Source: a virus
Lineage: Duplodnaviria; Caudoviricetes
Virus record (IMG/VR): IMGVR_UViG_3300009418_000023
Span: 1-53,605 of that record
Reading direction: 5' to 3' (one strand)
DNA length: 53,605 nt
Positions 1,862 through 30,200 of the stretch are shown one piece after another. How positions within the stretch are numbered: position 1 is the first letter of the stretch; each line of letters starts with the position of its first letter. Position numbers and translations under genes: made by a program. The notes beneath the pieces are model-generated. The model was given only the letters and a program-made list of their open reading frames with translations, made no database searches and was not told where the DNA came from.

Positions 1862-3567
1862 ATGTTATCCCAATCGTTAACGACATTACCATCACCATCA
1901 AAGGCGAAGTCTAATTCACTTAGCCTTCCGCTTTCGTGGTCATAGTATAGACACGCAGCAACACCTGATCTACCTGTTAGTCTGTTCTTTAGAACCCTAA
2001 CAATAGTAGTGTTGCTTACCCTGTCATCAGGATTCTGTCTGTCTCTTTCCAAAGCAATAACAGTATTAGGTACGGAAGATAACGAACCCGAGCCACGTAG
2101 ATCTTGTAGTGTGATTCGTACTCCCTCTTCATATGCTTTAGTAGTTTTCTTTAGTTGAGAGACAACATCAATATGAACACCCGTTCTTGAGACCAGTGCT
2201 CTTAGCTCTTTCATAATATTATCTATTAACAATCTTTCAGAGCCTCCTCCATCGAAGTCACTACTATCATTTAATAGTCCAGCAGCAGCAGCAGTGATAT
2301 GATCAAGAACAATTACATCAACATCAAGAGACACGGCCATGAACTCAATACGAGCACATAGATTCTTGAGTCCACTGTTGCCAAGATGATCATAGATATA
2401 TAGGTTAGATCCTTCTAGTTTCTTTCTAGCATCTGCATACTCTTCATCAGTTAGATCACTGATGATATCAATACTAATCGGATCCTTACCAAGCTTAGCT
2501 CGAAGTTCATTCATAACTTTCTTCGCTCGGATAGCTCGTACAGGTTTATTAATTAGTAATGATATCATGTCATCAACAGTTTCTTGAGGAGATTCCTCAA
2601 GCATAATAGCACCAACACTACGACCTTCTTCAAGGTGGTGGTGGATGATCTCTCTTAGGATAGTTGACTTACCGGAACCAGTTCCAGAAGCCCATAGTGT
2701 AACCTCTCCGCTTCTCTGTCCCAATAAGTAGTCGGATAAAGAATCAAACGGGAATGGGTAGACTTTAGTATCCTCAAGAGAGTTGATTGTATTAATTTGA
2801 GAAACATGTACAATCTCATCTGGTGAGTATTGTTGTGCTTCCCACATGGCCTGAATAATTTTTCGGCCCTGATTTTGAAGTAGGCATTCATTCGGATCCT
2901 TATATGGAAGCGAAGCTACCTTACATTTACCGGGAGGTAATAACTCAGCTACTTCTTTAGTTGCGTCTTGACCAGCATCATCCATGTCGAACATGAGAAT
3001 GACTTCTTCATAGCTGGTAACGAACTCAAGGTTATCCTTAATAGCTCTAGCAGCTCCTGCTGCACCATTAGGTAGACTAACTACTGGCCACTTAGTTTCC
3101 ATTAGTTGTCCTACTGTCATGCAGTCAATTTCTCCTTCGGTAATTACAAGCCTCTTACCTTTGGTGCTCTTCCAAAGGTGTTGTCCCCACAAGGGAACCT
3201 TAACTGTGTCGCCTCTCCACTGGAAGGCTTTGTTTGGGCCTCTTAATTTCTGAGCAACAACCTTACCATCACGAAAGAAGGAGGCAATCTCTACCTTCTT
3301 ACCTTCCTTGGTAATAGTTTGATACCCATAGAAACGAGCAGTCTTCTCTGTTATCTTTCTGTCCCCTACACCAATAACTTCTCCAGCGAGAAACTTAGTT
3401 GGGGACTTCTGTACTGTAGTAGACATATTTGAATATGCTCCTTCATGATGGCCACAGGCAAAACAATGTTTGCCGCCATCTTCATACACACATAAATTAT
3501 CTCGGGAGGTGTCCCGCCCACTGTTAGCGCAGGCGGGACACTGAACCCGGTCTTTAATCTTTGACAT
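1858..3567 (-). CDS. Primase-helicase (T7 gp4-like)
   Basis: Zn finger CPAC...CFAC, TOPRIM ITEGEIDC and FDMDDAG, Walker A SGTGSGKST, VLDH, DLRGSGSL, VLKNRLTG. Confidence 0.97.
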   Translation of the reverse strand: MSKIKDRVQCPACANSGRDTSRDNLCVYEDGGKHCFACGHHEGAYSNMSTTVQKSPTKFLAGEVIGVGDRKITEKTARFYGYQTITKEGKKVEIASFFRDGKVVAQKLRGPNKAFQWRGDTVKVPLWGQHLWKSTKGKRLVITEGEIDCMTVGQLMETKWPVVSLPNGAAGAARAIKDNLEFVTSYEEVILMFDMDDAGQDATKEVAELLPPGKCKVASLPYKDPNECLLQNQGRKIIQAMWEAQQYSPDEIVHVSQINTINSLEDTKVYPFPFDSLSDYLLGQRSGEVTLWASGTGSGKSTILREIIHHHLEEGRSVGAIMLEESPQETVDDMISLLINKPVRAIRAKKVMNELRAKLGKDPISIDIISDLTDEEYADARKKLEGSNLYIYDHLGNSGLKNLCARIEFMAVSLDVDVIVLDHITAAAAGLLNDSSDFDGGGSERLLIDNIMKELRALVSRTGVHIDVVSQLKKTTKAYEEGVRITLQDLRGSGSLSSVPNTVIALERDRQNPDDRVSNTTIVRVLKNRLTGRSGVAACLYYDHESGRLSELDFAFDGDGNVVNDWDNI

Positions 3568-6247: not shown

Positions 6248-8689
6248 TTACGCAAAGAAATAATCTGATTGTAAAACTTCCTCAAGCATAAGCTTGCCCC
6301 GTGTTGGAACGTCGGGAAGTTTAATTCCTAATTGGTTTTCAACCTCCTTCTTGAAGTTTTCTAGTTGGTTTGTCTTATGAATCTTAACAAACTCTTCTCT
6401 TAGTAGGTTTCTCATATCATCTATATAATTAGCATGGCACCCGAAGGAATCATGAATCATACAGAGGTCTATTATACCACAGTCTATCAGTCTGTCAATA
6501 GTTAAAAACATATGAGCAGCATCTAAACTGTGTATAAAGTTAGGGGAGATAGCTTGTAAAGAATCACGCGGAGCCACATCATTTGTCTTAACATAGAATA
6601 TAAGTTCCTTCTTGTTAAACAGATGAGCAAGAGATCTCCTCTTCTGTTGTTTATTATACTGGTGAACTACTTTAAACCCACTGGGGGTTGTCCACTCAAC
6701 GTGTTTGTTAAGCTTGTTAGCTTCTTCAATAATAGATTTTAAATATTGTTTGCCTTTGTTTGGTCCACTTAATGAGCGGTCAAGGCTAGCTTTAATAGCT
6801 CGGGCCAGCTCAACAATAGCTGCACCCTTCTTCTCACGAGACACCCAGTCGAGGTGTCCCTCTTCTTTTAGGTATCTCTGTATTCCATAGAAAGTAAGAC
6901 CATACGGTTCACACATTGTGCTGCGCTTTGTTACCTTCCTATCAATTTTATTATCCCAAAACTCTAGAAACTCACGATACCAATCGTTGTCGCTACTAAA
7001 GTTAGTGCAATAATCAGTAGTAACATCAGCTACATACTGGTATAGATCGTGCGGTTCGTCTGAAGGAGTTACCCCAGTCAGCTTAGCAATATCAGTGTCG
7101 CCCATGATAGAAGACCAGTGTTGGTTGCCGTTACATTTACCATCGATCTGTACAGGTACATAACTCATACCATCTTTCCTAGTAATGTCAAAGATCATTG
7201 CCAATCTTTGGAAAGACTTGTTCTTCTTCTTGGAATCATCAATCCATTCTTTATTTCCATATGGATCTTGAGATATACGTTCAATCATGTCCCAGTTATC
7301 GTCAACCCATTGTATTCTTTTATCAAAGGATACTTTATCTTGGTCAAACAGGTTAGCTAGATATATTTTCTGCCAATACCTACCCCTCTCGGTTATCTTA
7401 ACACCATTAGCAAACCTAATCATCCCCCTATCTAGGTCAGATGATTGGGGGGACAGCAACTCACAGGTTGTGTATGCCCTGCCCCTGAAATCTAGGGTGT
7501 AGACATGATAGAAAAACCCCCAAGGAATAAGATTCTCAGCCAGCTGAAGACGTATTAACATCCTTCCGCGAGCTTGTTCTTGCTTATACCAATCACTCCA
7601 AGCTTCCTCTTGGCGTTGACACCAGATAGCCTGTTGTTCTTTTGACCCATCTTTAGGGTACTCCTCATTATACATGAATTCTTCGAACGAAAAGTAGGGT
7701 AGATTAGCTAGCCCAGTATTGTTCTTAAACAGGGATTCCATCACCTCTACTACTGGTTCATTGATAGACCACTCTGTTTTCATCATGTGATTCAAACCCT
7801 TAACAACCTTTAAAGAAGGGCTCGAAAATTTTTGGTCCCTTTTTTGGTCTCCAAAGAAATTAGATCTAAACTTCTGGACCATAGGTTTCCTTAGGTTGGT
7901 ATGTATATACCCACCTGTAGATATTGTAGTATGGTCTTCGGGGATAGACAACATAGGTCTATATATTAGTGTAGAGTTCTGAAGAACATCGTGTCTTTTG
8001 TGTAGCTCTCTAAGAACATCGGGATGAAACTCAACCGATAGAAATTTCTTATAAGAATTACCTCGTTTTATCATATGAGAAGTTAAGATAATTATATTAG
8101 AAGAGGCAGCTATCCTAAGCATGTTATGTCCGAAGTCATGCCTTTGTTTAATTGATAGCTTAACATTTTTGTCCATCTTATCGGCAAATGCACGGCATCT
8201 CTTAGGTGTCCAGTTCTTTATAAACTTAGATTGTCTTAACCAATCATCTCTGTTATCTTCCTTAGCTCTTTGGAACGCAATAATATCACAAGCGTCATGA
8301 GATATCTGTGTAGCTAAGGTTTGTGCTAGAGGGGGGATAACTTTATCCTTTTCCCACCTGTATCCCCAGAAGGTACTAGAGAACCAGCTTCTAATCACAG
8401 CTCTTATAGTTATGTCAGCCATCTTCTGCGGACCCAGCTCAAGTAAGGGGTACAACCATTGAGGTGACTTACTTGATTGACACACCCTATCAATCCACTC
8501 CTGAAACACTTCTCTTAGTTCTACAACAGAAGAATCAATAAGTTCTTGTTCAGGTATGCCCTCATCGGGAGCGCGCTCATAGTCTGACCAATATCTAGAC
8601 TTACCATACTCAAGCATCTCTTGTTCATACAAGATCTGCGAGTTCTTTCTCTCTAACTTAGCGTCATCAGTTAAGGTATCCCATTTCAT
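6248..8689 (-). CDS. Single-subunit T7-type DNA-directed RNA polymerase (RNAP1)
   Basis: DFRGRAY, motif A IDGKCNGNQH, DLY, motif B RKVTKRSTMCEPYG, PNFIHSLDA, motif C IHDSFG, C-terminal YFFA. Confidence 0.98.
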   Translation of the reverse strand: MKWDTLTDDAKLERKNSQILYEQEMLEYGKSRYWSDYERAPDEGIPEQELIDSSVVELREVFQEWIDRVCQSSKSPQWLYPLLELGPQKMADITIRAVIRSWFSSTFWGYRWEKDKVIPPLAQTLATQISHDACDIIAFQRAKEDNRDDWLRQSKFIKNWTPKRCRAFADKMDKNVKLSIKQRHDFGHNMLRIAASSNIIILTSHMIKRGNSYKKFLSVEFHPDVLRELHKRHDVLQNSTLIYRPMLSIPEDHTTISTGGYIHTNLRKPMVQKFRSNFFGDQKRDQKFSSPSLKVVKGLNHMMKTEWSINEPVVEVMESLFKNNTGLANLPYFSFEEFMYNEEYPKDGSKEQQAIWCQRQEEAWSDWYKQEQARGRMLIRLQLAENLIPWGFFYHVYTLDFRGRAYTTCELLSPQSSDLDRGMIRFANGVKITERGRYWQKIYLANLFDQDKVSFDKRIQWVDDNWDMIERISQDPYGNKEWIDDSKKKNKSFQRLAMIFDITRKDGMSYVPVQIDGKCNGNQHWSSIMGDTDIAKLTGVTPSDEPHDLYQYVADVTTDYCTNFSSDNDWYREFLEFWDNKIDRKVTKRSTMCEPYGLTFYGIQRYLKEEGHLDWVSREKKGAAIVELARAIKASLDRSLSGPNKGKQYLKSIIEEANKLNKHVEWTTPSGFKVVHQYNKQQKRRSLAHLFNKKELIFYVKTNDVAPRDSLQAISPNFIHSLDAAHMFLTIDRLIDCGIIDLCMIHDSFGCHANYIDDMRNLLREEFVKIHKTNQLENFKKEVENQLGIKLPDVPTRGKLMLEEVLQSDYFFA

Positions 8690-11267: not shown

Positions 11268-11282
11268 TGTTGTTCTCCTTAA

Positions 11283-11356
11283 TAGCTCCGGTGGGACTCG
11301 AACCCACACTGTATGGATTTTAAGTCCACTGCCTCTGCCAATTGGGCTACGGAGCC
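11283..11356 (-). tRNA. tRNA-Leu(TAA), short variable arm
   Basis: GGCTCCG TAGCCCAATTGGCAGAGGC A GTGGA CTTAAAA TCCAT ACAGT GTGGG TTCGAGT CCCAC CGGAGCT A folds as a full cloverleaf. Confidence 0.9.
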
Positions 11357-11359
11357 AAA

Positions 11360-11432
11360 CACTCCGGGCAGGATTCGAACCTGCGACCCACGGTTTAGAA
11401 GACCGTTGCTCTGTCCCCTGAGCTACCGGAGC
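11360..11432 (-). tRNA. tRNA-Arg(TCT)
   Basis: GCTCCGG TAGCTCAGGGGACAGAGC A ACGGT CTTCTAA ACCGT GGGTC GCAGG TTCGAAT CCTGC CCGGAGT G folds as a full cloverleaf. Confidence 0.93.
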
Positions 11433-11436
11433 AGCA

Positions 11437-14870: not shown

Positions 14871-14968
14871 TAGCCCCGTGGGAATCGAACCCACTAGTCT
14901 TTAGTTTTTAGGCTCTACGTCACCCTACTTACCCTAGACACGTAGAATGTAGTCACCTCGACAGGGCA
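14871..14968 (-). ncRNA. tRNA-like structured RNA (T-arm, non-canonical body)
   Basis: GTGGG-TTCGATT-CCCAC T-arm; terminal GCCCTG/CGGGGC pairing possible; internal TCTACGT...ACGTAGA stem; no normal D or anticodon arm. Confidence 0.45.
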
Positions 14969-15072
14969 TTAGATTGTTCCAGTGTATTACCAGTTATACT
15001 ACATACGCGACGCGCGTAGTACATTACATACTATATTTCGCCATATGAACGGGAGTCGAACCCGTATCTCTG

Positions 15073-15144
15073 GAATGTTAGAGTAGTTTAGTGTCATGAG
15101 GCTTATATTGCCTTCCCATAGAGTTACCGCTCTTACTCAGGACA
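15073..15144 (-). repeat. ~72-bp direct repeat copy 1, putative pseudoknotted ncRNA
   Basis: Near-identical to 15837-15909. Confidence 0.85.
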
Positions 15145-15445
15145 AGTATATCGACCCATCCCGAAGGTTCCCGCCAAGGGTAGTGGCGCTATCATTCCTT
15201 ATAAAGATGACACATTTGCTACTCTTGGCTGCATCTAAACCTCAACCTAGCCCCTTCAACCGTCCAACATTACTAGGCATGTCTATATAGTTCATAGTGC
15301 AGAGGATTAGGCTACACAACCGTCAGGGGTGGCTCAATTAGTCTCACTTGGCTAGCACAATGCAAGCCCTAATGATACATCACATGAAGCGGTCTATGGC
15401 AGGGTCATGACTCCCTACATCCCTTTGTTCTCACACGTGTAAAAA

Positions 15446-15524
15446 TGGAGGCGGGCGGAGTCGAACCGCCGTCTTCGAGAGTCCGACATGCGGAGTTCTC
15501 TCGAATCTAAACCAAATCACCCCC
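15446..15524 (-). ncRNA. Mini tmRNA-like RNA (tRNA-like domain only, G3-U70 Ala acceptor)
   Basis: GGGGGTG ATTTGGTTTAGA TTCGAGAG..CTCTCGAA GAC GGCGG TTCGACT CCGCC CGCCTCC A. Confidence 0.75.
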
Positions 15525-15588
15525 CATAACGCGGAAGCCAGCGTGCTACCAGTCATAACACTACTAGGCCCAAGGTGCGACCTTGGCG

Positions 15589-15785
15589 TAACCTAGACAG
15601 GATTCGAACCTGTTCTACTGGACTCTCCTTGTTGATTGTTGACCGGCAGGATTCTCTATACCTGCAACCGAGAGATATCGTAAAGATATGGTCACCTCAG
15701 TACCAGCGTGATCCCAGTCAAGGGAATGCCCTAAACCACTTGGTCGTTGGGCAGACTACCACAGTCTACGCTTGTGCCTTAGGCT
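15589..15785 (-). ncRNA. ~197-nt multi-hairpin RNA closed by an acceptor-like stem and T-arm
   Basis: ACAGG-TTCGAAT-CCTGT then CTAGGTT-A; 5' AGCCTA pairs with TAGGTT; internal hairpins GTAGACT/AGTCTGC, TCCC/GGGA, GCAGG/CCTGC. Confidence 0.45.
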
Positions 15786-15836
15786 CCGATGTCAGAAGCC
15801 TTATTCAGCCACGGTCTACCCCCGTCGGGGTGTGTT

Positions 15837-15909
15837 GAATGTTGGAGTAGTTTCAAGTCATGAGGCTTATATTGCCTTACCATAGAGTTACACACTCTTA
15901 CTCAGGACA
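15837..15909 (-). repeat. ~72-bp direct repeat copy 2, putative pseudoknotted ncRNA
   Basis: Near-identical to 15073-15144. Confidence 0.85.
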
Positions 15910-16107
15910 GTGGTGATGCATCCCTCCCAATATTTATACAGGTAGGGAGAATCCCCTGTGATAGTTGTCTCCCCGCATCCTATAGATGCTACGAGGAATT
16001 CACAAGGCTCTCCGAAGATAGCCTATACCTCTCTAAAGGGAGAAAAGGTGTACCCCCGTTATCGAGGGGTACACCGAAGTTTGTCGAAAAAAGCAGATGC
16101 CCGTAGA

Positions 16108-16386
16108 TCAAGCCTTCTTGTCGGATTTCTCTTCCAACAGGGTAATCTTGATCCCACACGCTTCTAATTCCTTCTGAAACGCGGGTCTCTTCTCGCATGC
16201 CTTCACAGCACGGGATATCCAACGGTTCATTGCCAGCTTACCCCACTCTTTATCCTTCACGCCCATGACATTCCTAGCAGAGCACAGGTTATCCTTGATC
16301 GCCTTCTCGCTATACTCACGAGTAGGAGACTTCTTGGACCGCTCCGCAGGTGTCAGGGGTGTGATTTCGTATTCGTATGTCATCAC
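16108..16386 (-). CDS. Hypothetical protein
   Basis: GGAGG RBS before GTG/ATG. Confidence 0.7.
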   Translation of the reverse strand: MMTYEYEITPLTPAERSKKSPTREYSEKAIKDNLCSARNVMGVKDKEWGKLAMNRWISRAVKACEKRPAFQKELEACGIKITLLEEKSDKKA

Positions 16387-16593
16387 AGACCTCCGTTAAC
16401 CTTAAGTCTAACCTCAGGGTACATACACATAGTATGTAAACCCAATAACAATAACAATACAGACAAACTAAGCTTCAAACTTAGCTCATACTATACTATT
16501 ATACCCATGTATACCGCCCACGCACACAAGTGCTGCTCACACAGCAACTTACCACGTGCCCCGGCGGGCATAACAGAGTAAGGGATACTGAGA

Positions 16594-16697
16594 CAGGCGG
16601 AGCCTGAGCTAGTGTCCCACGGATTACAAGGCGGAGCCTAATCTATACTCCACAGTTGCACATACACGTTCCATATTATATATGCAGGGCGGAGCCC
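16594..16697 (-). promoter_or_regulatory. Three N4-type hairpin promoter candidates (GC-GGA-GC on the + template strand)
   Basis: CAGGC-GGA-GCCTG (16594-16606), AGGC-GGA-GCCT (16629-16639), GGGC-GGA-GCCC (16687-16697). Confidence 0.55.
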
Positions 16698-16704
16698 CTG
16701 TAAA
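16675..16704 (-). promoter_or_regulatory. Putative sigma70-type promoter
   Basis: Minus strand TTTACA-18 nt-TATAAT in an intergenic region, pointing into the early genes. Confidence 0.45.
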
Positions 16705-16740
16705 GACAGGCCACACTTGACTAATAAATAGTCGGTTCAG

Positions 16741-16775
16741 AAAAGCCCCCCTGAGGAATCTCACCTCAGAGGGGT
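16741..16775 (-). terminator. Rho-independent terminator
   Basis: Minus strand CCCCTCTGAGG-TGAGATT-CCTCAGGGGGG followed by CTTTT, downstream of 16808-17371. Confidence 0.75.
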
Positions 16776-16807
16776 GGAGTTTATTCAGTCTTTACTTAAG
16801 ACTTAAC

Positions 16808-17491: not shown

Positions 17492-19324
17492 TCAGTCAAT
17501 CGTGTCGAGATGGTGCATACGAATCACTGGTGGGATCATCTCAGCAATCTCAGCGTATGATGGTCCACTCGGTGGCTCGACATCATTCGCTTCCCACAGA
17601 GGAGCCAACGTAGCCTCCATTGTGGGAATAATTCGCACCATGACATTACGAGCATTCTCAAAGAACCGCCCAACTCGACTTGGTTGAAGTAAGAAACCAT
17701 CATGGTTGTCAAGTTGATGCCAATCTTGACTTTTGTTTTCAAGATTGAGCTCACTGTTGAAGTACGAATCATATATCGCGGCGAGGTGACAGCTAATCGA
17801 TCCGAACATCTCAACCTCAAACGGTGTGTACGTTGCCTTGCCTTTCCTACCATTAACAGAACCCCTAACTGTACGCTCTGGTTCTGTTGTCAGGCGGCTA
17901 TAAGGCATGAAGGGAATTACTTGCCCATCACCACGAATCAACTCAATCATCTTGCCAGTGGTCTCGACGCAGTGCTCATTGGCATTACGTGAACGTTGTC
18001 CGAGAGATCTGATCTCCGGAATAACCTCATGCATAGCCGGAGCACCAACATTACGAACCCACTTCTTGGCCACATCATACAGCTCTTCATACGTAACTGC
18101 GGCACGGAGTGTGCCCTTCTTGGTGAAGAGATGTACGAAATCGGGGTGTGTGGGCACCCAACTCGGGTACTCAACATGGTCTAACAGGTAAACCCTGTCC
18201 TCTTGGTACAGCCGTTCCATCTTGTCTGGATCGAGACCCAAGAGGTGGGTTGCCATGACAGCAACACCAGCCTCATACTGTCCGCCTCGTGCCAACCGTT
18301 TGGCGGTAGTACGTAGCGAATCATCCAACTCAATATCATTATCCATGGAGTTGATCCACCGACACATCTCGATATATGCGTCTCGCCGTTTGCCTCCGAA
18401 GAGATTACCCAGCCGCATACCAGACATACTTTTCTCAATCAACGCCTGAAACAGCTGCCCCGAACAACCCTGATCAAACTCTGCCGCAAGGGTTGTCTTC
18501 CCAGTTTGGGCATACTCTTTGCACTTCAACGCCACGCGAACGAGGCCGTATCCGTACTTATCGATACACTGACTCACTGAGCCACAACTGAGAATTGCTT
18601 CCCAGTTGTTAGCGTGAAGACCTGCCATGCCATTCGTAATTGACCAGAACACATCTGGTGTACATTCTTCGGCATTAGCGAAATCAATAAGTCCCTTTGT
18701 ATGGCTCTCTGTTTGCCATCCACAGTTACTCATATGATTGTATCGCCTTCCACGCTTATCGATACGCCTTACTGTTGGGTAGAACACTGAGTCGCCTACT
18801 CGCTTCAGTTCTTCAGCTACAGTTTCGAAACGTTCTGCATAGGCTCCACCATCCTTCGAATGGAATGCATCTGATCCCATCCATCCTTCAAGAAGCTCCA
18901 TGCTGTAACGAAGCTGAGTATCAGAGGTCCACTGCATTGACTCTGTCATACGATCGCAGATCGGCATTACATTACTCGAACACCGAGTAACCTCAGGAGC
19001 CCAAAGGCCCGTCAGCTCTCGCCGTTCCGTCTGGATAATATGCTCTCGGTGTGGGTACTCTGTCTGTTGCTGCCCAATGTAGAACTTACAGCAACTCTTA
19101 GCAATCTCGTGTTGCTGATCGTCTTCATCAGGGAACTGACGCTGTAACTCTTTGAACTCCTGCGTTCCTTGCAGTTCCAGTTCTTGATGTGCAGGAATTA
19201 CTAAGCGATCCACAGCATCTGACCCATCCCAACTGGAGGGCTTAGCGTGATATAGCACACGCTTTACTAATTCCGAATCCCCCTCGACCAAAGGATTCAC
19301 TAGGGTTGTGTTATCATATTTCAT
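17492..19324 (-). CDS. Second, compact single-subunit RNA polymerase (RNAP2, ~610 aa)
   Basis: IDKRGRRY, motif A EFDQGCSGQ, RDAY, motif B RTTAKRLARGGQY (Rx3Kx7Y), motif C NHDGF. Start MKYDN after AGGAG (alternative start 19375). Confidence 0.85.
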   Translation of the reverse strand: MKYDNTTLVNPLVEGDSELVKRVLYHAKPSSWDGSDAVDRLVIPAHQELELQGTQEFKELQRQFPDEDDQQHEIAKSCCKFYIGQQQTEYPHREHIIQTERRELTGLWAPEVTRCSSNVMPICDRMTESMQWTSDTQLRYSMELLEGWMGSDAFHSKDGGAYAERFETVAEELKRVGDSVFYPTVRRIDKRGRRYNHMSNCGWQTESHTKGLIDFANAEECTPDVFWSITNGMAGLHANNWEAILSCGSVSQCIDKYGYGLVRVALKCKEYAQTGKTTLAAEFDQGCSGQLFQALIEKSMSGMRLGNLFGGKRRDAYIEMCRWINSMDNDIELDDSLRTTAKRLARGGQYEAGVAVMATHLLGLDPDKMERLYQEDRVYLLDHVEYPSWVPTHPDFVHLFTKKGTLRAAVTYEELYDVAKKWVRNVGAPAMHEVIPEIRSLGQRSRNANEHCVETTGKMIELIRGDGQVIPFMPYSRLTTEPERTVRGSVNGRKGKATYTPFEVEMFGSISCHLAAIYDSYFNSELNLENKSQDWHQLDNHDGFLLQPSRVGRFFENARNVMVRIIPTMEATLAPLWEANDVEPPSGPSYAEIAEMIPPVIRMHHLDTID

Positions 19325-19394
19325 GATAAACACTCCTGTGTGAGGGATTCTAAGGATGACAGTACAAACACTCATCCTATAAAAGTGTCAAAGG

Positions 19395-19963: not shown

Positions 19964-20011
19964 AACTAACTCTCCTTGTGTTAGAGGTATGATTTACATC
20001 ATCTCTGAATA

Positions 20012-20040
20012 GGACACACGGGATTTCTCGCCGTGTGTCC
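20012..20040. other. Perfect 10-bp inverted repeat
   Basis: GGACACACGG-9 nt-CCGTGTGTCC, intergenic. Confidence 0.6.
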
Positions 20041-20070
20041 GTTTGGTTGTTAAGTCCAGTTAAGGACTGA

Positions 20071-20280
20071 CTAGCTCACACGGATCACGGTGACATGATC
20101 CAGATGAGTAGCGAGTTCGCCTTCCCAGCTTGTGAGAAGCCGACGGTTACGAGGATAAGGATTGCCGAGCACGGTGTCAATCGCACGTGCCGTGAGCTGC
20201 TTGTCATCCTCAGTGATACCTTCAGCGTTCTTATCTTCTGGGGAAGGTGGAACCCAGAACCTTCGGGGGGGGGCGGTCAT
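20071..20280 (-). CDS. Hypothetical protein
   Basis: GAGGAGG RBS. Confidence 0.7.
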   Translation of the reverse strand: MTAPPRRFWVPPSPEDKNAEGITEDDKQLTARAIDTVLGNPYPRNRRLLTSWEGELATHLDHVTVIRVS

Positions 20281-20479
20281 AATGACCTCCTCGTGTTAGA
20301 GTTATGACCTACGCAGGTCATCTCAAAAGTCAGCACCACACCTTACGGCGAGGGCTGGTACACTGAGACAATACTAAAACCACTCTTCCCGACTTCCCCT
20401 CCATGAGAAGCATGGTAGTACTCTCTTAAGTCTCTCCGGATACCAGCGGTACCCGGAGAGGTGACTCGGCGTGATCACC

Positions 20480-20815
20480 TCATCGTTGATGGGTGATCAA
20501 TCCCGACTGATCGGGAAGCACAATCGCATCCCTACGCTTCTTCATCTGGACTTGATCCAGAGTGTCCGAAGTTTGAGGACCAACGATTAGCGTAACTGGA
20601 CTGCGCTTTCTATAGAAACGCTCAGCCACTTCGTCACTGACCCACTGATCCTGATGCCACCTAAGTGGAACCAGAGTTACAGTCTGTTCAGAACCTTTCG
20701 GTTCGTCCCTGACTAAGGAAGCACAGATGTGTCCCCAGTGATGCCAGATCACAAGTGTCAGCCCAGCTAGTGCAAGCACTAACGCCGATATGTTGTACCA
20801 TTGAGCATCGCTCAT
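20480..20815 (-). CDS. Membrane-anchored hypothetical protein
   Basis: AAGGAG RBS; N-terminal TM helix. Confidence 0.75.
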   Translation of the reverse strand: MSDAQWYNISALVLALAGLTLVIWHHWGHICASLVRDEPKGSEQTVTLVPLRWHQDQWVSDEVAERFYRKRSPVTLIVGPQTSDTLDQVQMKKRRDAIVLPDQSGLITHQR

Positions 20816-20857
20816 TATAGTACTCCTTTGGGTTGTGACCCCGAAGGGTCAGACCAT

Positions 20858-20947
20858 TGGCCTGTCTCATCAGTGCTGGGCGGCCAGTCCCAACAAACAC
20901 CATACTCCTCAACCATCGGCGGTTGAGGACGTAGGGGGTGTTTCGAC
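20858..20947 (-). ncRNA. Type II hammerhead ribozyme
   Basis: GUC-GAAA-[stem III CACC...GGUG]-UU-[stem I UGUUGGG/CCCAGCA]-CUGAUGA-GAC; loop I UGGCC can pair with the 3' GGCCA. Confidence 0.85.
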
Positions 20948-20987
20948 TATTCATCCGCAGTCGAAGCGGTGTCGAGTGCGTCAGGGT

Positions 20988-21173
20988 TTACTTACCCTGT
21001 GCAATTGCAACGCACTTCGGACACAGTGGGATCTCGATGCGGTTTCCATCCGCATCACAGACAGCCACTGTGATGCACGCGCAGAGGTGACTCTGCTCGT
21101 GCGATATGAAGCGCCCGCAATCGGAACACTGCTCTTGCGAGCTAGTGTTACGCCGGACATCGGATGATACCAT
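20988..21173 (-). CDS. Small Zn-finger-like protein
   Basis: AGGAGG RBS; CSDC...HLC...CPKC. Confidence 0.65.
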   Translation of the reverse strand: MVSSDVRRNTSSQEQCSDCGRFISHEQSHLCACITVAVCDADGNRIEIPLCPKCVAIAQGK

Positions 21174-21282
21174 AGTATCACCTCCTGTGGGTTGTGACCC
21201 TACAAGGGTCAGGCCTTAAGGGGATAGGGGGGGAGGGCATACCCTCCACCTCATCCATACCCACGGAGAAATTCTCGACCCC

Positions 21283-24200
21283 CTAGTCGATTATTCCCGC
21301 ATCTCTATCGTACCTTCTTTGTTGTGCCTTACGTTCTCTATCCTCCCATTCGGGACTCCCCACAGGAGCTCCTACAAGGCTCTCAGGAGCTCGCTCAGGC
21401 CGCGTCTCTCGGATAGCCCCCACTATATCTCGTCTCATAGGACGCGGTGTGGGGGCAGCAGGAGCCTGTGAGGGGACGCTAGGAGCGGTTGTCTTAGGAG
21501 CCGGTGCAGGGGTTGCTGCAGGATTGGGATATTGCATCTTAGGAGTACCTGTAGCACCGGAGGGATTATACCCCTGAAGGAGTTGTTGTTGGATTGCTGG
21601 TGGGAGGTTTTCAAACTTAGGTTCCCACCCTAGTTCTCTAAGGATTTCTCGTAAGTCTGCGGCATATTGGGGTAAATTAGATGTCTCAGAAAAAGAACCA
21701 TAGGTTGCCCATTTTTTGTTTGATGATTTAGCACCCCTGCTCATTGAGTTGTTTTGCCTTTGCCACTCTTCGCCCATAGCGGAGAAGAATATAATCCTAG
21801 TTAAGGCATCGCCTATAACCGGAAGTGTTCTCGTTAGCATTATCATTGATGCCCAATCTGTATCTTTTTCATCATCTGTCCAGCCATCTATCAGCTTCTT
21901 AACATTATACAAGAAGGAGTTCATTGCACCCACTGGTACAAATCCAAAAGCTTCTCGGTGTGTGTTTGCGTAGATACCTACTACGGTTTCCATAAGCAAG
22001 CCTATATATCTACCAAAGTGTGGTAATCTAGCCATCATAAACAATGATTGTTTAACCGGGTCTTCTTCCCATCCCTCGATGATGTCTTCTACAGGATATC
22101 CTGCAGCTACAAGCAACAGTGACATATACAATGAATCAACCATAGCATATGAAACCCAATGAAGGGCGTTTCGTCTAAGGCTGAATCTTTGGTTTCTTCG
22201 TCCAATTTGCTGAGAAGCAAATAATACAGGATACCGCCTAAAGGTTTCAAAGATAAGATCCCAGCTACTATTGCCCGTAGCTGTATCAAAGGGATTAGGG
22301 TCGACTAAGATTTCATGGATATATCTTTTTTCTGCTCTTCTTAATCCTGAAATTATATCAAGGTATTGTTTGTATTCTGGATCTGTAGTAGCCCACTGAG
22401 GACCGCCTTCCCATGCCTCACCTTTATTCAAATTAGTTAATAATCCTCCTAAGCTGTAATACTCATCTCCCTTAGGACTGTTAACCATCTTAGCAAGGAT
22501 ATCTACATTATCGTTTGTCAGAACACCCTCATTCATTAAATACATAATGTTTGCTGCGTCTGTTCCGGGCAGGCCTACTCTTGACATTAACTTAGAAATA
22601 ATCTTACGCCCATCTACAGTATCCCATTCTTTAGGATCAACCTGCTTATGTAAACGCAAGAACTCTTTTAGCTTACTGCCATCTCCACCAACCGTAGCTT
22701 GCTGTAACCATCCTCTAAAGATCGTAGCTCGTGAGGTAGCAATCATTTGATGCAGTATTCCTGCAAGGTGCATATTACGCTCACCTAACCACTGAGGTAA
22801 CCTTTGATACCACTCCGACCTTACATCAATATCTGGCCGAGCATAGTCTGGTATCCGACCTTGGTTAAATATTCGGATAATCTCTGCCATATCTCTTGCA
22901 ACATTCTTTCTAATGTTAGGATCAAGTCCCATAAGAGGGGCAACGGCAGCCTTAATAAAACCACCCATACTACCTCGACCAAGTAGTTGATCAATCATAT
23001 TCATAGTATTCTCTACTACAAGCGTAGCCATAGTAAGGTTTGTGCCAAAGACAATTCTAACAACATCTGGAGCATATCTTGTAATAAAGTTTAGAGTTTC
23101 ATCGGCTGAGTCTCTATTACTTTCCTGTTTACCTAAAATAGTATTATACTTGATCTCTAATACACCCATTGCTTTAGTAAGTATATCACTGTCTTTAGCA
23201 CTTATACGACTACCGTCACTATTAAAAAGATTACCCATACCCAGTACATTCCTAAAGATACCTAACACATCGCCAGTAGTAGCCTTAATCCCATACTTAT
23301 CCATATACATAGATTGCTCTGCAATCCTCTGCCCAAGATGTTTCATGATACCATCTGAAATTGTTTCTGGCCCCCAGACAAGCATATCTGCAATCGCAGG
23401 ATTATTCATAACTTCGTGGACCGGAGGAATAGCCCAATCATTAGAGAAGTATATCTTTCGTCCAGCACCATTCATAATGTTTGCCACATGAACACTTACA
23501 GGACTGCTGATAGTAGGAGACTGCTGTCTTGCGGATTTTCCTTCAACGACCCCAAGAGTCGCAAGTCTGGAATCTATAGACTGACCTCTAAGTATATCTA
23601 GACGAGCTTGATTAGGTTTCTTTGCCTCAGCCCTATACTTACTCCACCAACCAGCGGTAATTCGTGTGTTTTCACTATTAAACCCCAAGTAGTCAGCACT
23701 AAACTTATTCTTTTTGTATCGCATATACCTCATAATTTGAGCTATAGCTGGTATAACATAGTTAACATAAGTATTGTGTTGTTCAATAGTAGAAGTTTTA
23801 TTTGTAAGTAAGCTACGGTATTCTTCATTTGTTTTAATACTTGCAAGTCTAGTTAGTGTGCTATCATAAGATGTGCTTCTTTCGCTCTGGCGTTGCCTCA
23901 TTAATTCGGCCATTGCCATAATTTCTTTCCAGAGTTGTGGGTTCTTAGTTTCTAACTCAGCTAACTCTTTTAGCCCTACTTCGGGATCAGCCAAATGAGG
24001 AAGCTCGCCCATTGCGTATAAAGTATAAGGACACATTCTTCTTGTTTTAAGATCTATATTCTGAGATTCCGTAACAATACGATCTCCAATAACCTTACCC
24101 ATTTCTTCTCTAAAGTTATTATAAACCGGCTGATCTTGTACCTTAGCATTCGCAAACATAAAAGGAATAGCTTCATCAAAAGCTCTATCCATAACACCTA

Positions 24201-27200
24201 CTTCGACCCCCATATGGTTTACAATACCTAGTAATGCAGCATAGTTAGTTACAATATTATCTGCTTCCTTTCTTAGCTCTGTGCTGTTTACAAGCAATGC
24301 ATCCGTGTACTCATACGCTTCTCCTGCCATTTGTTTTACTAACTTAGTCCACACTTCTTTAGCAAAGGTATCTCTTGTTTTCTCGTTTCCGGCAGTATTC
24401 CCTAATACCTGAGTTCTAAATCGAACGGTTGATTCAATAGGCCCAATAATATCATCGTAGACTCTTTCCATAGAGTTTCTAATCTCAGTAGATATTTGGT
24501 CAATCTGCTGAACAGAACCTAAGACATGGGGTATGCCATCCATATTACCCCAATGTCCTGCCATAGTACTCATTGAGTTGTCAATCATTGTTGATAACAT
24601 AACAAGTAAAGTAAAGGGAGAATTCCAAGTAGCACCGGATTCAGTACTACCAGTAGCAAGCATAGTCATAAACTGTTTTACTTTAGAACCAATACCACCC
24701 GGCCTGTTAAAGTAAGGAAGCTGCTGTATTGCCTTAGTAGCTTCAGCCATAAAGCGTCCGTCATTCCCCCGCATCATTTTAGTCATATCCATCAGTATCT
24801 GTGTAGCAAGAATCTGTTGATCATGAGGAGTACCTTCAACGAATATTCTCTTAACATCAAGAAGATCTGGACCATATGTTTCAACTGAGAAGTCCCCGCT
24901 TCTAACACTATATTGATTCTTAAGGTTTTCCCGACCTATAAGGAATTCACCTGTAGTAATACCAAGCGGTGTTATTTTATTACCGCCAAGAGTATCACGC
25001 CTATTCTCTAGCTGACCACGCTCCTTACTCAACTCCTCCCACTCCTTTTCAAACTTTCCGGATTCACTTTCAGGTGCCTCGGGAGTATAGAAGTTATGGT
25101 GTATAGCGTCCTCTAATTCACCCATTCTTCTCTTAACTTCATCAAGAGATTGTAGGGTAGCTAGTAATTCGTTCTCTGTATTCTCCACCGTAGATTGTTG
25201 TTGTGTTCCTTCTGTAGACATATACAGCGGTCCCATATCAGGGTTACCTACATCAGCTATCGTATTTCTACTTGTCTTGGTTGCATCCTGTCCTAGAGTT
25301 CTTCTGATTAAGTTAATGGCTCTTTCGTATTCAGCTGGCTCGGTTGATTTAAAATCTGAGAATACAGAAGATACTCTATCTAATATCTTACCAATAAAGG
25401 CAAAGATTTTATCAATTATGGTTTGTGTCTTTGCAAAGAATCCCGCTTCTTCGGAAGTTAGAGGAGTATTGGCTTCAACCTGCCTTAGTAATTCTAAGGA
25501 ATCGTGTACTAAATGATACCCTGTCAGGGCCGCAATAAACTCTTCGCCCGTAGTATCGTTCATAATTCTAGCATACTCATCTTGAGCAGCCTTATTCCAC
25601 TGGCCGTTATGGAAAGCCATAACAAGTTTCTTCAGTGTTCCGCCACCCTGTTTACTCCGCTCGCGTAAGAATAACGTTCTCCACTCTCTATAGTGGTATG
25701 AATCATTCTCGATAAACATCATTCTACCAATATGGCCAATCTCCTCAGCCACTAAATACGCCACACTTAATGCATCTCTTCGCCCAACTAATTGATTACC
25801 AATTCTAATTGTATACCTACCACCTGATTTTTCTGCGGATCCTCTTCGCTGTTTCCCAGAATTATCAACCCACTCACTATCTAAGAATTCAAAATTAACC
25901 TCAAGAACCATATCAGGAGCATACTTAAACCACTTACCAAGAATTGCTCTTATCATTCTAGCTTGAGCCTCAGAAAGGCGACCACCGTCAACAGCCTCTT
26001 TTATCTTAAGGGATAGTTTACCCAACTCAGGAACAGCAGATGAGAAGTTATCGTGATTTCGAAGATCTCTGCTTTTAAGATGCAGCTCATTAAATAAATC
26101 CGGATCTCTATCAAACACATGAGTATCTAATACAGAAGCTAATGCCGCCTCTGCTGAAGAATGCATCTCGGTAGACATATCTTCAATATCATATATCTCC
26201 TGCAGATAAGCAAGGAAGTCAATAGTAATATCGGAATCACCAGAAACAGTACGTTCTCCCTCGCTAATCTGATCTACGTATGATCTAGCATCCCAATAAA
26301 AATCATTAAACTGTTGACTATCGGTTGCATTTAGGATTGACATAAGCTGATTAAACTCACCCTTAACTCTAAGGTAAGCACTAGAAACATCAGCATCAAA
26401 CTTTTCTTTTTCTGCCGCTGTTTCTCGTGACATCAGGGGGAAGAATACTCTAACCTCGCCCATCTCAATATCGGGTTGCCGTAACATAAGCCCAAGTATA
26501 ATAGCTCGTATGGTTGCTGGGTTTTTAATATTCCCATCAGTTAGTTGTAGTGTAGTTACAAGGAGTTCTTGAATAGTTCTATGCTCAAGATCAACCCCAT
26601 CTGTATACACATCCATATAAGATTCTCTAACCCCAGTTAGATCATGAATAAGACTCAACCCTCTTGAGTTAGCTTGTGAGTGAGGGCTACTATGTTCCAT
26701 TTCTATATTCCAAGTTGGAACAATAGTTTTAAAGGTTGTCTTTGCTTTTCCTTTTACCGTCCCTCGGAACGGTCCTTCAGAGGCAGCCTCAATATCAACC
26801 GGCGTTGTTCGTCTAACTAATTCCTTTAGAATTTTTTCGTTAAACTCTGCATCTTCTGAAATATATTTGTTATATAGATCCATAGATGCTTCCGGCGATC
26901 TTTCATTTATCTCCGCAATTTTTCTTCTAATTGCGTCTGCCTGTATAGGAGATCCAGAACGCTCAAAAGCTAAACTCAAATCTTTCTCGGTAACCACTAC
27001 TGGTTCACCATTAACTCGCGTGCCTCTCTTTTTTAAGGCAGCAGCAAACATACCCTCTTCACTCTTCTCACCGAGTTTTAATCCTTTAAGCAAACTATTT
27101 AAAGTCCAGTTTAGACTTTGTGTAATGTCACCACCTAAAAACTTAGAATCAGCGAGCATGTTGTTTTGCATTAAGTCAATACTAAGTTCAGCAACTATCT

Positions 27201-30200
27201 GCGCAGTATTAAGATCATTAGCAAGGATACCTAACTTTCTAAGGTCAAAACTATTTCCATTATAAGTAACTACCTTGCCTCCCGCTAACAAATGCTGCTT
27301 CAACATCTTTAATAAAGCTCTAGCTTCACTTCCGCTTACTGAACGAGTAGGCGAGAAATGCTTACCCTTTTTAAACCCCACTCTTCCTGCTGCTTCAAGT
27401 GTTCTTTCAACACCACCAATACCTACAATACGTTGTTCCAAGTCCATCGTAGTTTCAATATCAATAGATATAACATTATCTGTATCGTATATCCAATTAG
27501 GGTTGCTTTGGATTTCAATAATATTAGCTGCTTCAGCTTCATCTAAACCTAGCGATGTTAAGATTTCTACTGCTTTGGTAGGATTATGTTGAGACCACAT
27601 AGTTCTTTCTGGTGCAGCCCTAGCCATAATATTCATCTCAAGCAAACCTAAACTAGATAGTCTCTTCATAGCTGTAGTAATTGGAGAGATTAAAGACTCA
27701 ATAAAGAAGGGTAATGCATTAGGTCTAAGTCCAGCATCTGGTCTATAATAATTAATCCAGTCTACAACTCTAGGTTTAATATTACCAGATGAACGAGAAC
27801 CATCAACAAGCATATGAGCAACGGTGTGTCCTGATTCAACACGATCTACTATAATCTCCATTGCTTCACTTAAGACTCTTTCTCTGTTCATCTTTTCAGT
27901 TTCACTGTAGCCGAAGTAATCAGCCATCTCTTCAGCATCAGATCGAACTAACTCAGGCTTACCTTCGGCATTAGATCGATAGCGACCTGTTGGCTTGTTG
28001 GTACGCATCGCGGTTTCTATTCTTTCGATAAAAGGATAGTTCTTATGTGACGAAAGCATCAGTAAAGCACCCATTGGTGTAATACCGAGTTTCATGTTTG
28101 TTCCGATTACCGTTCTTGGAACTCTCATAAGCATAGTAAAGGGGCCACCCATAGGATTACGTAAAATCATTTTATCAGTACGTTCATCCTTCGTTGGCTG
28201 CTGCTGTATTAACTTAACAAGGTCATTTCTACCCTCAACACTCTCTACAATAAAATCAAAGGAGAATACAGGATCATTTGCTAGTACAGCTTTCTCTCTA
28301 GCTACATTAATAATAGCTTCTCTGTGATCTGGAGGAATAGCGTTAAAGGATTGTATATCTCTTTGATTAGCAATAACTCTTAATTGTTTCTTTAGTGCGG
28401 GCTCCTTAACAATACCTATATATGTTTCTATAGCTTCAGATATATACCCATCCCACAGTACTCCTACAAGAAACTCCAACTCATCCACAGACTGAACAAG
28501 TAAGGGATGTATGGCCGTCTCTTCTAGTTTAATTGTTTCGCCCGGATTAACCCCCTCTTCAATTATAAAGTGCTCTGTAGGAACTAAGCTTTTTTTCAAA
28601 GCTTTGTGAATAAGGGTTGGTCCGGATAAGACAGAGAATGGATTATTCTCCGAATATGGACTTGTCAGGATATCATATAGCGTTCTATCTGCTAAGTCTG
28701 GATTTAAAATACCAATTTCATGTCCCTTAGTTTCCATAAGTAAGGAAGACATCTCTTTGTATCTAATATCCCGAGATAATTGGAACAGCGCGTGGAATCC
28801 TTCGAGGTATGTATTACGGGCTTGTAGTAGTTTCTCTTCGTTAGTTAGTCCTTTATCTCCATAGCGTACAGCAGAAATGATCTGGTCCATTTCATGTTCA
28901 AGTTTTTGATCAAACCTATATACTAAATACAAGTACGGTACCATTTCTGGATCAAGCATCTCTGCCTCAAAGCCACGTTCTATTGCCCACTTACTCATCT
29001 TCATCTCAACAACATTAGCTACCATCTCAGGTGCATTAGCATCTAATCCCATAAGATAGTCTAGATAATCAGACTTAACATCTGGACCCATTGGAAGAGT
29101 TTCTCTATTCCAAGGTTTCTCGAATCCTCTACTAGTTACTGGAATTAAGTGATCAGGGTTTTCTAAGGGTTGGTCTAACATAGCCGATACTTCTTCAATA
29201 GGACTCATCATCTCTCGTTCAGCGGCATGATAAGCTTTATTCTGAAGGTATAGGTTGCCCTTATTGTGATAAGGCATTCTCCTAGTTTCAGGAGCCCAAG
29301 ACATGTATCCCCTTGGTTTGTCTGTAGACTCGAATACCATATCTTCTGTATCGTGTCGTAGTTCTGTCATTGTATGTTCTGCGGACCCTCTGAAGGTCAT
29401 AGGATGTCCTGCGACTGGGACCAGTAAACCTATACCCTTAGAGAAATAATCTATGCTTGCTTGGTTTCGAGAACCATCAGCATTCCTAACACTATCTTGT
29501 TGTAGTCTTTGCGCATTAGTATGATCTATAGCAGCTTCTTGAGAATGCTCCCACCACTGACTCAATACTTCGGCTTCGAGTTCATCCATATTATCTTCAG
29601 CTTTATATTTTGACAGAGGCGGCTTCTCGGGTTCTGTAACTCTAAGAAGCATTTCATTTCTCATCATAAGAACAGCAATAGTATGATCCATTCTCTTGTG
29701 CCACTCCGCTACTTCAGCGTCATTATCAAAATCAACCATTCTCATTATGGGGTTGCCATATTTATCTAACCTTACCTTCCCATTTTTATCCCTAACCGGA
29801 ATCTTTTGATGAGGATTATCTTCCATTCTCCACTGACCCAACGGAGATTCGCCTTCTACGTCTACAAATACTTGCTTACCGTTTACATATTCGTAGGGAT
29901 TTTCAGACCACTCCATGATCTTTCTACCAATCTTAGCAGGGTTATCCCAATCTTCATCTCTAATCTCTTCTGCTACGAAACTTTTAAACGCATCTTGATT
30001 AGTTTGGATTCTAGCAAACATCGTGTTGTGATGGTGTCTATTCATATTAGAACTTGCAGAATAGGTTCTATAACTCTCAAGACCGGGTAAGAAGATTTGA
30101 TACAGAATAAAGTTCTGAATTCCAAGAAGATCTTCTTCATTAAATCTCTGGTGATTAGTTGCTGCTTGTGCCTTTAATACATCTACAGCAACTCTGAACC

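Follow-up and report, generated by a model that had tools for sequence, protein, structure and literature searches.

Template-strand GC-GGA-GC hairpins at the late-early boundary of a marine T7-like phage genome: candidate N4-style promoters

What is the role of three hairpins with the core of a phage N4 promoter when they stand between the late and the early genes of a T7-like phage: are they promoters for a phage polymerase or signals of another kind? The locus is at positions 16594-16697 of the IMG/VR virus record IMGVR_UViG_3300009418_000023, a DNA of 53,605 bases that was analyzed over its full length and is called the window below. The phage represents a deep lineage of T7-like podoviruses from the sea, so far uncultured, and the sequencing runs that contain it (22 runs) are marine metagenomes, with no RNA run among them. 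We found that the hairpins are real, clustered, strand-specific and selected for pairing, and that their core is identical to that of the N4 promoters P2 and P3. N4-style hairpin promoters for a phage polymerase, the reading offered in the initial annotation of the window, are the best single explanation, which we hold tentatively and at somewhat less than an even chance.

The three hairpins were read directly at the sequences and positions first claimed for them, all on the plus strand. H1 (CAGGC-GGA-GCCTG, 16594-16606) forms the apex of a 37-nucleotide imperfect hairpin (16582-16618). H2 (AGGC-GGA-GCCT, 16629-16639) continues past a 3-nucleotide bulge into a lower GATT/AATC stem (16622-16643), and H3 (GGGC-GGA-GCCC, 16687-16697) extends to CAGGGC-GGA-GCC(C)CTG (16685-16700) with one bulged C. 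The perfect stems of H1, H2 and H3 contain five, four and four base pairs, respectively, and at least six when bulges are allowed; the template loop is GGA in all of them. The core is invariant and the outer stem varies, as had been noted, with the fourth stem pair being A:T in H1 and H2 and G:C in H3. The sizeable open reading frames (ORFs) in the ORF listing of the record are all on the minus strand; therefore, the plus strand is the template, and the hairpins do lie on the template strand for leftward transcription. H1 folds as DNA with -8.5 kcal/mol on the plus strand against -6.8 kcal/mol on the minus strand, under folding parameters that carry no extra bonus for a GNA loop.

The 9-mer GGCGGAGCC at the heart of these hairpins occurs three times on the plus strand of the window and zero times on the minus strand. 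All three copies fall within a 101-nucleotide stretch (16596-16696), 34 and 58 nucleotides apart. With one mismatch allowed, GGCGGAGCC has eight matches against 3.44 expected, and GCGGAGC occurs five times against 1.92 expected. Among 300 first-order Markov sequences of the length of the record, none contained three copies of one 9-mer hairpin (3-bp stem, 3-nucleotide loop) within 110 nucleotides, and six contained three copies of any 9-mer at that spacing. A genome-wide count of GC-GNA-GC-type hairpins, suggested at the outset as a check, gave a different picture: C-GNA-G hairpins with a stem of at least 4 bp number four per strand against 1.36 expected, a count reached by 10 of 300 random sequences, and H1-H3 are the sole intergenic ones in the record. 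The hairpins therefore represent a local cluster and not a genome-wide excess. Triloop hairpins in general are also enriched in the gap that holds the cluster (six against 1.7 expected; as high in 9 of 1000 shuffles).

The heptamer GCGGAGC in H1-H3 fits the d(GCGNAGC) class, in which a GNA loop is closed by a C:G and then a G:C pair. PMC13037366 gives N4 promoters and primase start sites as the natural sites of these hyperstable mini-hairpins. According to PMC4496689, N4 promoters carry a GC-rich heptamer centered at -11, and the N4 virion RNA polymerase (vRNAP) contacts -8G, -9C, -10G and -11G, with a sheared -10G:-12A pair. We read the template strands of the N4 genome as CCATAAGTTGC-GAA-GCAAC at P1 (hairpin GTTGC-GAA-GCAAC), CCAAAAGAAGC-GGA-GCTTC at P2 (hairpin GAAGC-GGA-GCTTC) and CCAAAAGCTGC-GGA-GCAGC at P3 (hairpin GCTGC-GGA-GCAGC). 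The P2 hairpin quoted in the initial annotation agrees both with this reading and with the template oligo GAAGC-GGA-GCTTC as printed in PMC13492108.

The likeness to N4 covers several features. The window heptamer GC-GGA-GC is identical to that of P2 and P3, and the bases contacted by N4 vRNAP (-8G, -9C, -10G, -11G and -12A) are all present in H1-H3. In both phages, three copies of a template-strand hairpin with a 3-nucleotide loop and a stem of about 5 bp stand ahead of the first early genes. Furthermore, the window phage encodes single-subunit polymerases of the T7-like type as well as a giant protein of several thousand residues. However, this phage is T7-like and not N4-like in its replication and structural genes, a homolog of N4 gp50 is not detectable by sequence in it, its candidate polymerase may be a separate protein of 627 amino acids, and one of its hairpins, H3, sits within a sigma70-type promoter spacer. 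Part of the likeness could also reflect convergence toward the small DNA hairpin of highest stability, because the heptamer belongs to the hyperstable d(GCGNAGC) class.

The upkeep of the hairpins was followed in relatives found by scans with the canonical 813-residue T7-like RNA polymerase (RNAP) of the window phage, which matched 23 loci among viral contigs and a further 29 among metagenome contigs. We screened 12 loci and the window, each with at least 4 kb of upstream DNA, for GC-rich triloop hairpins; four relatives (L016, L008, L012 and L178) allowed the orthologous gap to be delimited, and among these only L016 has GC-rich hairpins of the H1-H3 kind. L016 shares 74% RNAP identity with the window phage and is syntenic on both sides of the gap, with homologs of the 627- and 187-residue proteins on one side and early genes on the other. 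Its hairpins on the RNA-like strand are GCCC-TCT-GGGC and CACCC-TCC-GGGTA, which correspond to the template loops AGA and GGA. The second is the ortholog of H1, anchored by the conserved flanks CTAGCTCA and T-N-TC-N-CAG (that is, CTG-N-GA); two of its stem pairs are flipped from G:C to C:G, and the loop and the closing C:G pair are unchanged. The first stands at the position of H2, with three pairs changed on both sides. Across the five hairpins of the window and L016, 20 of 20 cells are paired and three of the four pairs change on both sides. The five were picked for being hairpins; therefore, evidence comes only from changes where the position is anchored. A variant of the window phage, X17, was read from the Logan contigs of one run (four runs compared). 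It differs by 14 substitutions and two deletions across 16203-16743 and has no change in the three 9-mers, although only about one would be expected there by chance; breaks in the contigs fall at 16449 and 16599-16623; in addition, its -10 box becomes TATAGT and the sigma70-like spacer is shorter by two nucleotides.

The cluster lies in a 421-nucleotide gap (16387-16807), between a strong late terminator and the first early ORF; its place after a terminator and before the early block is as had been stated. The late block is closed by an intrinsic-terminator-like hairpin (16774-16746, minus strand) with 11 pairs, eight of them G-C, followed by CTTTTCT. In the direction of transcription, the 627-residue ORF, a 187-residue ORF and this strong terminator-like hairpin come before the cluster; a 280-nucleotide leader, an early ORF of 92 residues without a family (16108-16386, minus strand) and a second terminator-like hairpin (16075-16047, minus strand) come after it. 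H3 does sit, as described, in the spacer of a sigma70-like site, TTTACA-18-TATAAT (16704-16675, minus strand), which matches 11 of 12 positions and is called by this consensus match alone. Among H1-H3, only the H3 location has usable -35 and -10 hexamers, and the TATAATAT box of the site is kept in L016.

We suggest that, where the early region begins, H1-H3 may extrude from the template strand as DNA mini-hairpins and serve a single-subunit RNAP of the phage as N4-style promoters or as entry sites of a promoter-like kind. The reader would be either the 627-residue RNAP or the core of a protein of 5359 residues, and it would either enter with the DNA or be the first to be made. With the N4 geometry, transcription would start about 11 nucleotides from the loop center, near 16589, 16623 and 16681, where the template bases are T, A and T. 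Extrusion of H3 could also switch off the host-type promoter whose spacer it occupies; PMC4496689 reports this effect for an N4 hairpin set in the rrnB promoter spacer. Compensatory change does not separate DNA folding from RNA folding. The extended stems depart from Watson-Crick pairing at two positions only, where the template strand has G-T and the RNA-like strand has C-A, and the template strand folds better in four of the five hairpins of the window and L016; both points lean weakly toward DNA. H3 is unlikely to act as RNA, since it comes after a strong terminator and before the one good promoter. In the full scenario, the N4 strategy has been kept, or taken up independently, by a phage whose replication and virion genes are of the T7 type: a polymerase made late (the 627-residue RNAP, the 5359-residue protein or both) would be carried in with the DNA and start early transcription at the hairpins, one of which would also work within a host-type promoter as a switch that responds to supercoiling. 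In this complete form, the scenario is doubtful.

The first candidate reader is encoded at the end of the late block, two genes upstream of the hairpins (17492-19375, minus strand), with one gene, that of the 187-residue protein, between it and the late terminator. Alignment with the L016 homolog exposed the motifs of a T7-like single-subunit RNAP in order: DKRGR206 (T/DxxGR), DQGCSG301 (motif A), RTTAKRLARGGQY355 (motif B, R-x3-K-x7-Y) and HDGF558 (motif C). In hhalign, the 627-residue ORF matches the family of the 813-residue RNAP with an E-value of 3.9e-5 from T/DxxGR to motif A, and it has a BLAST match to the T/DxxGR region of gp15, a subunit of N4 RNAPII (pairwise E-value 1.4e-4). In the ESM Atlas, it groups with viral PF00940 clusters of 558-711 residues (feature score 0.95, template-modeling (TM) values 0.67-0.72). 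From the four ordered motifs and the three kinds of matches, the product is therefore assigned as a compact second T7-like RNAP, previously unrecognized, as judged from its sequence. The ORF itself has no Pfam match at an E-value of up to 1, no PHROG match and no match in 50,697 GenBank phage records; a word-based homolog search returned it alone, and its profile found nothing among the PDB sequences. Among four proteins that were scanned, one matches PF00940 with an E-value of 0.0076, which is below the Pfam threshold. In more distant relatives, an extra RNAP-like gene was observed first after the equivalent gap (L161, 778-2901; L179, 1195-1, minus strand; L014, about 2850-3330), and the L161 product, with 707 residues, is 23.5% identical to the 813-residue RNAP. 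Several members of the group therefore encode two or three single-subunit polymerases.

The second candidate is the 5359-residue product of an ORF without a family (21283-37362, minus strand). Its own family contains 70 representatives, many with 3,400-5,700 residues. A conserved central core (residues 1660-2650; 29413-32385, minus strand) holds motif-A-like and motif-B-like elements, and the residues strictly invariant in about 40 aligned members are D1952, in the context hydrophobic-H-D-S/A, D2052 (D-x3-N/S-G), R2159-x3-K2163-x7-Y2171 and R2432. D2052-x3-NG resembles motif A and R2159-x3-K2163-x7-Y2171 resembles motif B of the Pol A/T7 family; the A-to-B distance is 107 residues, equal to that in N4 mini-vRNAP, with the motifs read from L180. 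An earlier AlphaFold2 model of the core from four sequences was unusable, with a mean predicted local distance difference test (pLDDT) of 37, and a model from a 54-row alignment reached 73.8. In a structural scan of 48,161 chains with the latter, T7 RNAP came first (Z 6.3, 123 residues, model residues 390-580 on T7 534-690) and human mitochondrial RNAP second (Z 5.7), with the best matches within model residues 390-612. The aligned ranges start three residues ahead of D2052 in the giant core and of D537 in T7, which agrees with the motif assignment. The chances that this protein is a giant virion polymerase like N4 gp50 are about even.

The 5359-residue protein has no matches in PHROG, the PDB sequences or the ESM Atlas, and a search with its C-terminus found only the contig of L016. 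A DEDD/RNase-H-like stretch with IDIETT was observed near residue 3300; its match to RNase_H_2 (E-value 0.0011), the sole Pfam match of the ORF, is below the threshold. The sequence DFDND at residue 2544 was considered as a two-barrel RNAP signature, and it is not conserved in homologs with 50% identity; this reading was therefore rejected.

Several observations weigh against H1-H3 as promoters for either polymerase. The N4-type reading of the initial annotation stands in the identity of the core, the strand, the place and the presence of candidate polymerases, but not in the start region: H1-H3 lack CCAWAA, the start region that N4 carries on the template strand 5' of the stem, and the 5' flanks of H1-H3 (ACTGAGA, GGATTACA and TATATGCA) share no common start region. 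The predicted +1 of H2 would give an unusual U start. The window hairpins are confined to one site of 101 nucleotides, whereas the N4 promoters are spread across about 4.5 kb. In L016, H3 has no counterpart and one of the loops is AGA instead of GNA. The TATAAT(AT) box is kept in both lineages upstream of H1, H2 and their L016 counterparts, which lie at about +26 to +29 (H2) and +60 to +62 (H1) from TATAAT; at these nearly unchanged distances, H2 and H1 would therefore lie in the 5' leader of an RNA made by the host. Moreover, a perfect sigma70 consensus inside the early block (TTGACA-17-TATAAT, 14061-14033, minus strand, 12 of 12 positions) suggests that the host RNAP can read early genes.

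Other points concern the polymerases. The intact 627-residue RNAP was seen only in the window and L016, the two lineages with GC-rich hairpins, and the complete relative G002 has neither the gene nor the hairpins. The window and L016 are sister lineages; this co-occurrence is therefore one observation and not a correlation. The family of the giant protein also occurs in relatives that lack the GC-rich hairpins. The structural match of its modeled core is weak, with Z values in the range where chance arrangements occur, and Foldseek returned nothing for the model of pLDDT 73.8 at an E-value of up to 0.001. The core shows no motif C in canonical order and no T/DxxGR, and its other invariant Asp (D1952, in HD) stands before motif A rather than after motif B. 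The hhalign comparison of the core with N4 mini-vRNAP was not significant; neither was the control comparison of T7-like RNAP with N4.

The conserved TATAAT box brings in the rival with the most in its favor, namely that the hairpins work in RNA. The host RNAP would start near 16668 at the TTTACA-18-TATAAT site, and H2 and H1 would fold in the early RNA as C-UCC-G stem-loops, which would stabilize the 5' end or, in a put- or nut-like manner, act on the polymerase so that it reads through the terminator at 16075-16047; on this view, H3 would be a copy that arose as a by-product. This terminator indeed follows the first ORF, and the 311-nucleotide leader folds much better than its shuffles (z -4.65; none of 100 as good). 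In L016, TAGGCA-18-TATAAT (2539-2568) precedes the hairpins at 2594 and 2628, with the box and the distances kept, although without a good -35, and the compensatory changes suit RNA as well as DNA. H3, however, carries the same 9-mer and yet lies upstream of the start, behind the strong terminator; both wobble positions would become C-A mismatches in RNA; and there is no Rfam covariance-model match in the gap at an E-value of up to 1. UCC and UCU triloops are not known as stable or recognized RNA motifs, which also counts against this explanation. We regard it as unlikely. The location of H1 and H2 downstream of a conserved TATAAT nevertheless fits an RNA leader just as well, and the N4 start region is absent; therefore, the hairpins do not independently support the polymerase assignment, as they had been said to do. 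T7 itself has tandem early promoters, A1-A3, a cluster of three ahead of the early genes that is read by the host RNAP. The window resembles this arrangement in its T7-like genome, its three clustered signals before the early genes and its one good sigma70-type site, but the repeated unit in the window is a hairpin and not a pair of hexamers.

The same heptamer could instead serve as a signal in single-stranded DNA, either an origin or priming site at which the primase-helicase acts or a mark for packaging or for concatemer junctions. The terminal repeat of T7-like genomes lies in this gap, after the last late gene and ahead of the first early one, the phage encodes a T7 gp4-like primase-helicase, and the gap also has a unique conserved 14-mer, with TACC(C/T)TA(A)GGTA repeats there in relatives. 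Hairpins of the d(GCGNAGC) type are placed by PMC13037366 at the primase sites of G4, St-1 and alpha3 and at ssiA of RSF1010, for which GCGGAGC is an exact class match. These systems, however, act on single-stranded phage or plasmid DNA in replication, and the window is a double-stranded genome with the hairpins at a transcription-unit boundary. In addition, the record is a fragment classed as linear by IMG/VR, nothing ties the hairpins to the primase or the terminase, and the more distant relatives lack them. We consider such a role distinctly unlikely.

A third possibility is that GGC-N3-GCC is a double-stranded operator, with the early promoter under the control of a dimeric DNA-binding protein, from the phage or the host, that binds the three sites cooperatively. 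The palindromes are short and identical, with one in the promoter spacer and two just downstream, which would suit such a protein. However, the sites are very short (9-13 bp), and neighboring ORFs have no family in the PHROG and Pfam scans, so that no candidate regulator was identified. The comparison with L016 runs opposite to what an operator predicts, as the half-sites are flipped and the non-palindromic center TC(C/T) and the orientation are kept; operators are thus quite improbable. Local duplication without function, for which the identical 9-mers and the absence of H3 from L016 might speak, is very improbable: the dissimilar flanks of the three copies argue against simple duplication, two of the hairpins are kept by compensatory change where the intergenic DNA of L016 is barely alignable, and X17 has no change in the 9-mers beside its 14 substitutions and two deletions, although only about one would fall there by chance.

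What gives the locus its interest is the exact N4 core in an otherwise T7-like phage, adjoining an unannotated gene for a compact polymerase. Only one phage family is known to have hairpin promoters that an injected T7-like polymerase reads, and the titles and abstracts searched describe neither this lineage nor any hairpin promoter in a T7-like phage. If H1-H3 are N4-style promoters, they would be the first hairpin-promoter system outside Schitoviridae, and this mode of transcription would be more widespread. A minimal polymerase of 627 residues that reads DNA hairpins would be a very small promoter-specific enzyme for single-stranded templates. If they are not promoters, they would offer a clean case for other roles of d(GCGNAGC) at the heads of phage genomes.

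The gap has further features. The 14-mer CTATTTATTAGTCA (16718-16731, minus strand) has a single copy in the window and is identical at the same relative place in L016, although the surrounding DNA of the two is barely alignable. It was considered as a promoter family and rejected, since it is unique in the window. It is present in at least 113 viral-contig stretches; of the 80 compared by blastn, only L083, which is the contig of L016, matched the window. No repeated T7-type promoter was found by a repeat search and an intergenic k-mer search of the record. The scan of the 29 metagenome loci gave no new orthologous gap with GC-rich hairpins, the 2.6-kb hairpin region has no megablast match among GenBank phages, and scans with the 187- and 627-residue proteins singly found no IMG/VR relatives. 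The idea of a triloop-hairpin cluster in the gap of every relative was borne out only in part: enrichment was seen in the window, in L016 (10 of 1000 shuffles as high, mostly from AT-only hairpins) and in L008 (16 of 1000), and it was not seen in L012 or L178.

In the more distant relatives, the gap holds TACC(C/T)TA(A)GGTA palindromes in place of GC-rich hairpins. Across the relatives, such repeats stand just before the first early gene, at 1600-1680 in L008, 3205-3300 in L012, 6320-6400 in L178 and 2925-2960 in L016, and the window has a degenerate version near 16385-16420. They resemble the short repeats of CCTAAAG type that adjoin the terminal repeat of T7.

The remaining genes, all on the minus strand, were identified by PHROG and Pfam scans of the ORFs of the record, for which IMG/VR gives a completeness of about 79%. 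They include a DNA polymerase cut off at the left end of the record, the primase-helicase, a gp2.5-like single-stranded DNA-binding protein, a large terminase and a tail protein; a fiber has a weak match, below the threshold, to the N-terminal domain of the T7 tail fiber. The gene for the 813-residue RNAP (6248-8689; PHROG 414, E-value 5e-159; PF00940, E-value 3.5e-82) lies about 7.9 kb downstream of the hairpins, and the GenBank phages nearest by this protein show only about 27% identity.

After the first early ORF, there is a non-coding stretch of 1.2 kb (14895-16107, minus strand), with small early ORFs beyond it. The stretch contains a match to manA RNA (15636-15831, 79 bits), a 3' piece like that of a transfer-messenger RNA or tRNA (15443-15524, 51 bits), several T-arm-like sequences that were not called by ARAGORN, and a 55-nucleotide repeat (15073-15127 and 15837-15891, 91% identical). 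Adjacent genes for tRNA-Leu(TAA) and tRNA-Arg(TCT) are located among the early ORFs (11282-11433, minus strand). On the late side, a match to the type II hammerhead ribozyme (20856-20948, minus strand; 39 bits against a gathering score of 37, E-value 4e-5) sits between small genes downstream of the giant ORF. In the same region (19964-21282, minus strand), four successive genes each have a short hairpin at the 5' side, such as TGACCC-N5-GGGTCA, followed by CAACCCA or CTCTAACAC and then by a ribosome-binding site; this repeated cassette is perhaps a processing site or a promoter.

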